39,560 nucleotides of DNA from a virus (IMGVR_UViG_2548876940_000011); one strand, 5' to 3'. Shown: positions 37,931 to 38,955, numbered from the stretch's first letter. Numbers and translations are program-made. The notes: generated by a model not told the origin, from the sequence alone.

Positions 37931-38016
37931 GATCAAACTCATAAATTTTCGCTAATGACATTTCGTGTTATTTGTTGTATCAATTAAATAAATCAAATCG
38001 ATCGTTTTTGCCGATC
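37931..38016 (+). promoter_or_regulatory. GATC-containing region upstream of com (candidate methylation-sensitive mom control region)
   Basis: Three GATC sites at about 37931, 38000 and 38013 in the AT-rich stretch before com; Mu mom control uses clustered Dam sites. Confidence 0.4.
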
Positions 38017-38063
38017 GATTGAGTGATAAAGATATCAACAACAAAGCAGGAGGTTATGCGGCC

Positions 38064-38264
38064 ATGTATCGAAACATACGGTGCCGACATTGTAACAAGC
38101 TACTGGCACGAGCCAGCTTCAGTTATCTGGAAGTTAAATGTCCGCGCTGTAAAACCCTCAATCAAATCACATCTCAGAGCGCCACAGAGCACCCCACATA
38201 CACAAGGAAATCCTGTCGTGGGGAACAGAAAGCAAGTTACATCCCGTATCATCAGCACGCCTGA
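38064..38264 (+). CDS. com: Com, zinc-finger translational activator of mom
   Basis: ORF 38019..38264; ATG at 38064 10 nt after AGGAGG gives [34 protein letters not shown], a CxxC...CxxC finger like recalled Mu Com; overlaps the next ORF. Confidence 0.8.
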
Positions 38265-38955
38265 ACTTATTCACTATAACGACAATATCGTCGGTTATGG
38301 CTCCCGTGAGTTACGGGTTGAGACAATAAGTTGCTGGCTGGCCCGGCTGGTCGTCGTCAATAAACATTACAGCCATCGTTTCGTAAATAATTCCTACCTT
38401 CATCTGGGCATATTTTCAGAACGGGAGCTGGTTGGCGTAATGCAATGGGGTTATGCCCTTAATCCAAACAATGGTGCACGCGTCGTAACTGGCACGCAGA
38501 ACCGCGAATATATGGAGCTTAACCGGTTATGGCTGCATGACTGTATGCCGAGAAACTCCGAATCAAGGGCAATCAGTTACGCGCTCAAACTAATCAGACA
38601 ACTTTATCCGCAGGTGCAGTGGGTTCAGTCGTTTGCAGATGAGCGTTGTGGCTGTCTTGGTGTCGTGTACCAGGCAAGCAATTTTGATTATGTAGGCAGT
38701 CATGAAACAACATTCTATGAACTTGATGGCGAGTGGTATCACGAGATTTGCAAGAATGCAATCAAACGAGGAGGACAGCGAGGTGAACATCTGCGGGCTA
38801 ATATCGACAGAGCCAGTGTTCATAAATTCCGTCAGTTTCGTTACATCCGGTTTCTGGACAAGAGAGCCAGAAAACGCCTTAACACAAAGCTATTCAAAGT
38901 CCAGCCTTACCCAAAACCACAAACAGTTAAAACTGGTTTGAAAGAGAGTGAATGA
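38218..38955 (+). CDS. mom: Mom-like DNA-modification protein (start uncertain)
   Basis: ORF 38023..38955 overlaps com in another frame; in-frame GTG at 38218 after AAGGAAA gives about 245 aa, near the length of Mu Mom; last gene before the right end, as in Mu. Confidence 0.7.

Follow-up and report, generated by a model that had tools for sequence, protein, structure and literature searches.

The com and mom genes

The window (the whole 39,560-nt stretch of viral DNA that was analysed) contains close to its right-hand end two overlapping genes, com and mom, together with the RNA and DNA elements listed in Table 1. The product of the first gene matches PF10122 (Zn_ribbon_Com) with 48.2 bits against a cut-off of 22.9, and it is 45% identical to the Com protein of phage Mu (E = 2e-14). 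When the two proteins are aligned, the four cysteines of the CxxC...CxxC pattern (C7, C10, C26 and C29) fall in the same columns. A RefSeq (PGAP) entry, WP_014334043.1, has identical coordinates on a copy of this DNA that is 99.9% identical. The NCBIfam models gave only a sub-threshold zinc-finger match to Com, and the PDB sequence search with Com returned no matching entry. The label of the RefSeq protein is 'Com family DNA-binding transcriptional regulator', while in experimental work Com is described as an activator of translation that binds RNA. The com gene lies directly upstream of mom and the two overlap by 47 nt (38218..38264) in different frames.

Table 1. Features of the com-mom locus and of the prophage that carries it; positions are counted from the first nucleotide of the window.
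Feature	Position	Strand	Basis or remark
Mor/C-family activator gene, the only one of the prophage	10846..11268	+	PF08765, 106.9 bits
AT-rich intergenic control region 5' of com	37808..38063	+	35% G+C, against 53.5% for the window
GATC without Mu homologue	37931..37934	.	absent from the L011-type sublineage
Perfect 9-bp inverted repeat AATCGATCG-N7-CGATCGATT	37996..38020	.	carries GATC 38000-03 and 38013-16
com Shine-Dalgarno AGGAGG	38048..38053	+	10 nt 5' of ATG 38064
com, zinc-ribbon translational activator, 66 aa	38064..38264 (ATG start; stop 38262-64)	+	PF10122, similarity to Mu Com, RefSeq
Counterpart of the Com-binding hairpin (GCGC CACAGA GCAC)	38179..38192	+	aligned to the Mu 19-mer GAAUGCCUGCGAGCAUCCC
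Translation-inhibition hairpin (predicted)	38192..38223	+	CCCCAC 38192-97 pairs with GUGGGG 38218-23
mom, predicted GNAT-fold tRNA(Gly)-dependent adenine N6 modification enzyme, 245 aa	38218..38955 (GTG start; stop 38953-55)	+	PF25680, Mu Mom, PDB 8bv8, RefSeq
Right prophage end	39001..39083	-	three TTTGATACY repeats (39001, 39036, 39058)

The second gene encodes Mom. Its product matches PF25680 (Mom) over profile positions 1-202 of 202 with 261.2 bits (cut-off 27.1), and a search against PDB entry 8bv8, the crystal structure of Mu Mom, gave E = 2.4e-123. The corresponding RefSeq (PGAP) entry, WP_000528246.1, has the same coordinates on the 99.9%-identical copy and carries the name 'tRNA(Gly)-dependent adenine aminoacyltransferase Mom'; among the NCBIfam models none matched. 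At the DNA level, blastn showed mom to be about 71-72% identical to the genes of Mu (72%), D108, SfMu and Yersinia Mu-like phages. The match to Mu begins only at 38267, indicating that the divergence of com and of the control region is too great for detection by DNA comparison. Downstream of mom, a terminator scan found no compact terminator.

It has been reported that Mom moves glycine from Gly-tRNA(Gly) onto the N6 of adenine in double-stranded DNA, that the activity of Mu Mom needs R111, S124, D149 and R151 as well as H58, Y59, Y159, W181 and the dimer residue W48, and that the HTH-like insertion of Mu Mom (residues about 175-209) is required for activity (PMC13219725). When we aligned the 245-aa protein with Mu Mom, as a sequence-only reading of this DNA had proposed, the identity was 75% and every one of these residues was retained. 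R111, S124, D149 and R151 correspond to R103, S116, D141 and R143, while H58, Y59, Y159, W181 and W48 correspond to H50, Y51, Y151, W173 and W40, all of them identical. The HTH-like insertion is also present and is ungapped relative to Mu. The same chemistry may thus be expected of the window protein by analogy with Mu Mom.

The start codon of mom is the GTG at 38218. Its counterpart in the alignment is the GTG of Mu mom (IVGKEKK vs VVGNRKQ), PGAP calls the same codon, and no other canonical start codon is found between the hairpin upstream and the conserved domain. In addition, Mu Mom shortened by 10 residues, a form equivalent to the GTG start, is active (PMC13219725). We also considered a longer Mom of up to 299-310 aa that would be made from a start 5' of the GTG, as a 310-aa ORF (38023..38955) is open across all of com and contains an in-frame ATG at 38056. 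However, this ATG is located just 2 nt from AGGAGG, and the upstream open stretch has anywhere between 24 and 147 codons in relatives and is shortened to 52 in the closest sister sublineage. Since the upstream open frame is not conserved in the sister lineages, we rejected the 310-aa ORF as a longer Mom, and we attach next to no probability to such a product. The sequence-only reading had described a Com-like zinc-finger ORF overlapping in another frame an ORF of roughly 245 aa, which would begin at a GTG about 47 nt inside com, and had compared this arrangement with the mom operon of Mu. The coordinates bear this out, with the GTG 47 nt before the end of com, and the comparison with Mu is upheld by the Pfam matches, by the identity of both proteins to those of Mu, by the position at the right end of a prophage, and by RefSeq, where both genes are annotated with identical positions.

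The prophage and its insertion site

The window holds a Mu-like transposable prophage of about 38.9 kb, which extends from about position 200 to 39083. Pfam matches within it include Mu-transpos_C, Phage-MuB_C, Portal_Mu, GemA and Mor, and a tail sheath and a lysozyme are also encoded. The DDE transposase A, the MuB ATPase, the Mu-type portal, GemA, the Mor/C activator and the end repeats are all those of a Mu-like transposable phage. The repeats have the form TTTGATACY, for which 7 matches were found against 0.48 expected. Three of them are located at the left end (217, 312 and 364) and are inverted relative to the three at the right end, and they are presumed to be transposase-binding sites. 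As in Mu, mom is the last gene of the prophage, and it ends 46 nt ahead of the first right-end repeat.

The remaining DNA of the window (1-199 and 39084-39560) comes from the insertion target, which is the tail-fibre gene of a lambdoid prophage; a minus-strand ORF (39062..39385) matches PF08400 (phage_tail_N). The left junction reads ACGGA/TGTAACC and the right junction GCGCTATA/CGGAC. The flanking repeat is therefore ambiguous: CGGA (4 bp) or, counting the A at 39083 as target DNA, ACGGA (5 bp). The target itself is a short tandem repeat. The terminal bases of the window prophage are TG...TA, in contrast to TG...CA in Mu. Independent insertions in other genomes gave a right end at window position 39083 in every case and a left end at about 200. 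Of 5426 complete E. coli genomes, about 233 carry a copy with at least 90% identity, and these copies are inserted at many different places. Alleles of 99.8-99.9% identity were found at many independent insertion sites, indicating recent transposition.

Two regions of the prophage that lie outside the com-mom module deserve a description. First, the prophage of NZ_OZ547136.1, which is 99.7% identical, has at window 33814-34675 an intact gin-like recombinase gene and a partial alternative tail-fibre gene, and the window prophage is without about 840 nt there, including the recombinase gene except for its last ~67 nt. The host-range inversion switch of the window prophage thus appears to be deleted or locked. 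Second, the region from 34675 to 37807, between the tail-fibre region and com, consists of about 3.4 kb of genes not present in Mu. It encodes a 684-aa protein (SASA carbohydrate-esterase domain and DUF6645), followed by DUF1378 and DUF826, and it also contains a minus-strand ORF of 97 aa without a family match. These genes may be accessory cargo.

Since a near-identical copy retains the gin invertase gene that is missing here, the com-mom module might likewise be taken for a decaying, unexpressed remnant. On the contrary, both ORFs are intact, all key residues of Mom and all cysteines of Com are present, and the prophage retains both ends, the transposase, MuB and the structural genes, in addition to having near-identical alleles at many insertion sites. 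We consider decay of the module very unlikely.

RNA elements over the mom start

In Mu, the translation-inhibition structure has the GUG of mom in its stem, and Com binds a CC(N)2-3GAG loop located just 5' of it; Mu Com binds the RNA directly and activates translation (PMC6483171). The sequence-only reading had pointed to a hairpin that would sequester the ribosome-binding site and the GTG, and the fold found one, with its arms placed as in Mu (Table 1). The GTG at 38218 sits in the 3' arm of this predicted hairpin, and part of the Shine-Dalgarno sequence AAGGAA (38204-09) is taken up in an inner helix. When we compared folding energies with those of shuffled sequences, the local hairpin had -12.6 kcal/mol and z = -2.26, and its Mu counterpart (CCCAC/GUGGG) had -9.5 kcal/mol and z = -2.74. 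The 96-nt region as a whole is not more stable than its shuffles (z = -0.11).

Just 5' of the hairpin, at 38182..38189, lies a Com motif of the form CC-N3-GAG (CC-ACA-GAG), at the same distance from the inhibition hairpin as in Mu. The window sequence GCGCC-ACA-GAGCAC-CCCAC can be aligned column for column with AUGCC-UGC-GAGCAU-CCCAC of Mu. In the window copy, pair 2 of the Com-hairpin stem is a C·A mismatch, and only 2 pairs of this stem form in the minimum-energy fold. A search of the window at Rfam gathering thresholds returned no RNA family, indicating that the element made of the Com hairpin and the inhibition hairpin is evidently not in Rfam.

We then turned to natural variation. A scan of viral contigs with the window Mom gave 80 loci of 66-100% identity, from which 11 distinct com-mom junctions, representing at least six lineages and unambiguous in alignment, were taken for a covariation analysis. 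The two-helix structure was paired in 96% of cells in these 11 sequences, compared with 23-58% when the 3' partners were slid. All four stem pairs of the Com hairpin showed compensatory changes: pair 1 occurs as A-U, G-C and G-U, pair 2 as U-A and C-G, pair 3 as G-C and A-U, and pair 4 as C-G and U-A. None of 500 shuffles reached the covariation score of the observed alignment. The C·A mismatch at pair 2 of the window copy is shared by two other loci (L027 and L028), while a near-identical relative (L006) has a U at that place, which restores the pair. These comparative data provide natural covariation support for the Com-binding hairpin.

The inhibition helix behaved differently from the Com hairpin. 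It was 100% paired in the 11 sequences and invariant save for one C-to-U wobble, with a loop of 11-20 nt, and no compensatory change was found in it. Its arms fall in codons of com (EHPT...CG) and in the start of mom. Since the arms lie in coding sequence, their conservation is no independent proof of the structure and could be maintained at the protein level. Two more distant lineages (L031 and L045) have different hairpins, in which the Shine-Dalgarno sequence is still covered.

As a side observation, the codons for the conserved C-terminal residues of Com (EHPT ... C(R)G) fall on the 3' arm of the Com hairpin and on both arms of the masking hairpin (window 38185-38223). Conservation of these residues may reflect the RNA structure rather than the function of the protein.

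The sequence-only reading had called a Com-dependent unmasking of the mom start plausible, and the hairpin and the Com motif lend it support, although the binding of Com itself is argued from Mu. An alternative is that the mom start is unmasked mainly by ribosomes translating com, with Com binding secondary. The hairpin at 38192..38223 lies wholly inside com, so every com-translating ribosome must melt it, and the Com-binding stem is imperfect in the window copy. Nevertheless, direct binding of Com to RNA is supported by the Mu literature (PMC6483171), the motif and its spacing are kept here, and the zinc-ribbon protein has been kept beside the hairpin in many lineages. Passing ribosomes may contribute to unmasking, but this would leave the conserved Com protein and its motif unexplained, and we regard it as improbable that they are the main agent. 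We therefore retain Com as the likely agent of unmasking.

A further group among the scanned loci, L048-L081 (IMG/VR), has Mom homologues of 66-70% identity but no com gene. In these contigs of 40-50 kb, mom is located mid-contig, often just 3' of a tRNA or a terminator. They have in common a structured leader about 100-140 nt upstream of mom (for example L048:1389-1491), which contains a GGG/CCC helix around a covarying hairpin. In addition, both the Shine-Dalgarno sequence and the nucleotides ahead of the start codon are base-paired within a long hairpin (GUCAYGAGYA ... GGAGURC ... GAC) that has two compensatory pairs. The leader had no Rfam family match, and it appears to be an undescribed element that masks the mom start independently of Com.

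The control region upstream of com

The intergenic region 5' of com is separated from the upstream plus-strand genes by a minus-strand ORF (37514..37807), and it must hold the com-mom promoter. The block that it has in common with the sister sublineages begins near 37965. Three GATC sites are found in it, at 37931, 38000 and 38013. Only 72 of 39473 86-nt segments (0.18%) contain at least three GATC, which makes such a cluster unusual. The sites at 38000 and 38013 are the counterparts of sites 2 and 3 of Mu mom, with an equal spacing of 13 nt and the same CGATCG...GATCGATT context, and this pair together with its flanks is common to Mu, the D108-type, L027-L032 and the window lineages. On the other hand, site 1 of Mu is replaced by GTATCAATT in the window, so that just two homologous sites of the Mu-type three-site Pmom are left. 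The GATC at 37931 lies 69 nt farther upstream than the conserved pair, and around it, upstream of about 37965, the L011-type sublineage carries unrelated DNA. The sequence-only reading was thus right that three GATC sites lie in the AT-rich upstream region, but they cannot be equated with the three sites of Mu, since two are homologous and the one at 37931 is not conserved.

The arrangement of these sites relative to com also differs from that of Mu. In Mu, the three sites are arranged as GATC-N14-GATC-N9-GATC, and 78 nt separate the last of them from the com ATG. Next comes a C-binding/-35 segment, TTATGCCCCAATAACCACAC; in the Pmom of Mu, the C-protein site overlaps a poor -35, which is followed by a spacer of 19 nt containing a T6 run and by the -10, TAAGAT. 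The distance from the last GATC to the com ATG is 51 nt in the window and 52-54 nt in L027-L029, compared with 71-78 nt in Mu, L030 and L032. No counterpart of the TTATGCCCCAATAACCACAC segment was found in the control region of the window, and a scan for sigma-70 consensus promoters gave none on the plus strand upstream of com. The -10 candidates of the window, GATAAA and TAAAGAT, are weak and vary among sublineages. TAAAGAT is at a Mu-like distance from com (30 vs 28 nt), and its -35 position falls between both GATC sites. In L027-L029, a good -10 (TATACT or TATAGT) is located 7-9 nt past GATCGAT, which would place the Dam pair in the -35/spacer.

At Mu Pmom, repression is exerted by OxyR bound to the sites in their unmethylated state, and it is lifted by Dam methylation. 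When the sequence was fitted by eye to the OxyR consensus ATAG-N7-CTAT, just ATCG-N7-CGAT at 38001..38015 fitted, and we rejected the call of an OxyR site at this place because one fitting repeat is insufficient.

The product of the Mor/C-family gene is closer to Mu C (40% identity) than to Mu Mor (28%). The gene is located between gemA and the lysozyme gene, just before the latter as C is in Mu. Mu encodes Mor as well as C, but no second copy turned up in the prophage when either Mu protein was used as a tblastn query. By analogy with C, the product is likely to be the late activator of com-mom transcription. Two intergenic regions of the prophage, 11273-11312 (upstream of lys) and 19460-19500, contain CCGCAAAWCCKGCCC, with TTAYGCTG about 18 nt later, and this combination may be the late-promoter signature of the phage. 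Near com, no match to CCGCAAAWCCKGCCC was found at up to 3 mismatches, and the com upstream region had no 13-mers in common with the other intergenic regions at up to 2 mismatches.

With two homologous sites, a GATC cluster 27 nt nearer com than that of Mu and no Mu C box, transcriptional control cannot be assumed to be that of Mu. One possibility, which we hold to be less likely than not, is that the control region has been rearranged, with a two-site Dam palindrome on the core promoter, its GATC pair straddling the probable -35 region, and without a Mu-type C box. Methylation or OxyR would then act directly on the binding of RNA polymerase and not on an upstream activator step, or a different activator site would be used. 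The short distance between the last GATC and com here and in L027-L029, the position of the Dam pair relative to the -10 of the latter, the missing counterpart of TTATGCCCCAATAACCACAC and the modest identity of the C homologue to Mu C all favour such a rearrangement. However, the -10 candidates in the window are weak and variable, and Mu Pmom is itself non-consensus, so that a missing recognisable box proves little. If so, the way in which this promoter senses methylation or OxyR and responds to late activation would depart from the textbook scheme of the Mu mom promoter. The distance of the Dam-site module from com varies by lineage, and this variation could guide work on the evolution of mom transcription control.

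Interpretation and proposed mechanism

The identities of 75% and 45% to Mu Mom and Com, the domain matches, the gene order at the right end and the start-masking hairpin together support an interpretation along the lines of Mu com-mom. Based on these observations, we suggest, with a probability of about 0.9, that the window carries the com-mom operon of a Mu-like (Sp18-type) E. coli prophage, that this operon is the last transcription unit, and that it is restrained at both translation and transcription.

Mom is toxic, and its synthesis is therefore held back. If the window operon works as that of Mu does, its transcription would start from a weak promoter in 37808..38063, probably with the help of the activator encoded at 10846..11268, and this promoter would probably be sensitive to Dam methylation of the GATC pair in 37996..38020, in a manner like the OxyR/Dam control of Mu. 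In the transcript, the GUG of mom and part of its Shine-Dalgarno sequence are predicted to be locked in the hairpin at 38192..38223, inside the com frame. Com, made from the same transcript, would bind the CC-N3-GAG element at 38179..38192 and open the adjacent hairpin, upon which ribosomes could start at the mom GUG. Mom would then attach glycine to adenine N6 in double-stranded DNA, after which a rearrangement would yield a carbamoylmethyl adduct. Progeny phage DNA modified in this way is expected to resist many restriction enzymes.

The operon is genuine and is already annotated in public genomes, so it is not new, and the finding has little significance beyond correct annotation. Nevertheless, the sequence is in agreement with a prophage that can hypermodify its DNA to evade restriction, and it indicates that the putative Com-controlled hairpin switch is conserved in a widespread lineage of E. 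coli prophages.

Comparison with known systems

The com-mom operon of Mu comprises Mup54 and Mup55 (NC_000929 35768..36602), and the gene order and the position as the last operon are the same in the window. Both systems overlap com and mom in different frames, with the GTG 50 nt before the com stop in Mu and 47 nt in the window. Both have a CCCAC/GUGGG hairpin over the GTG with the CC-N3-GAG Com motif 3 nt 5' of the hairpin, and both have two Dam sites 13 nt apart in AATCGATC...GATCGATT. When we compared the two systems in detail, several differences were also observed. First, Com of the window is 4 aa longer than Mu Com, and Mom has 12 extra C-terminal residues. Second, the loop of the inhibition hairpin is 20 nt in the window but 11 nt in Mu, and the window hairpin adds a sixth G-C pair and the inner helix, while its Com hairpin contains the C·A mismatch. 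Third, GATC site 1 of Mu has been lost from the control region, which also lacks the Mu C box and the T6 spacer. Finally, Mu has gin directly before com, whereas the window has the ~3.4 kb of extra genes there.

Another close system is a prophage of E. coli O157:H7 Sakai. Sp18 of this strain has been described as Mu-like and intact, and at the corresponding position it encodes homologues of Mom and of the Mom regulator (PMC3299994; PMC2669165). The window prophage is similar to Sp18 in size, and O157:H7 genomes carry copies at least 99% identical to the left end of the window prophage. Sp18 is reported with an invertible region, whereas the window copy is without gin. In other Mu-like prophages (FluMu hin1523, Pnm1 and B3), a Com homologue is encoded directly 5' of a DNA-modification gene, and Com-binding elements have been proposed at the start of that gene (PMC3299994). 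The downstream gene of these cassettes is an adenine methyltransferase unrelated to Mom, whereas that of the window encodes a true Mom.
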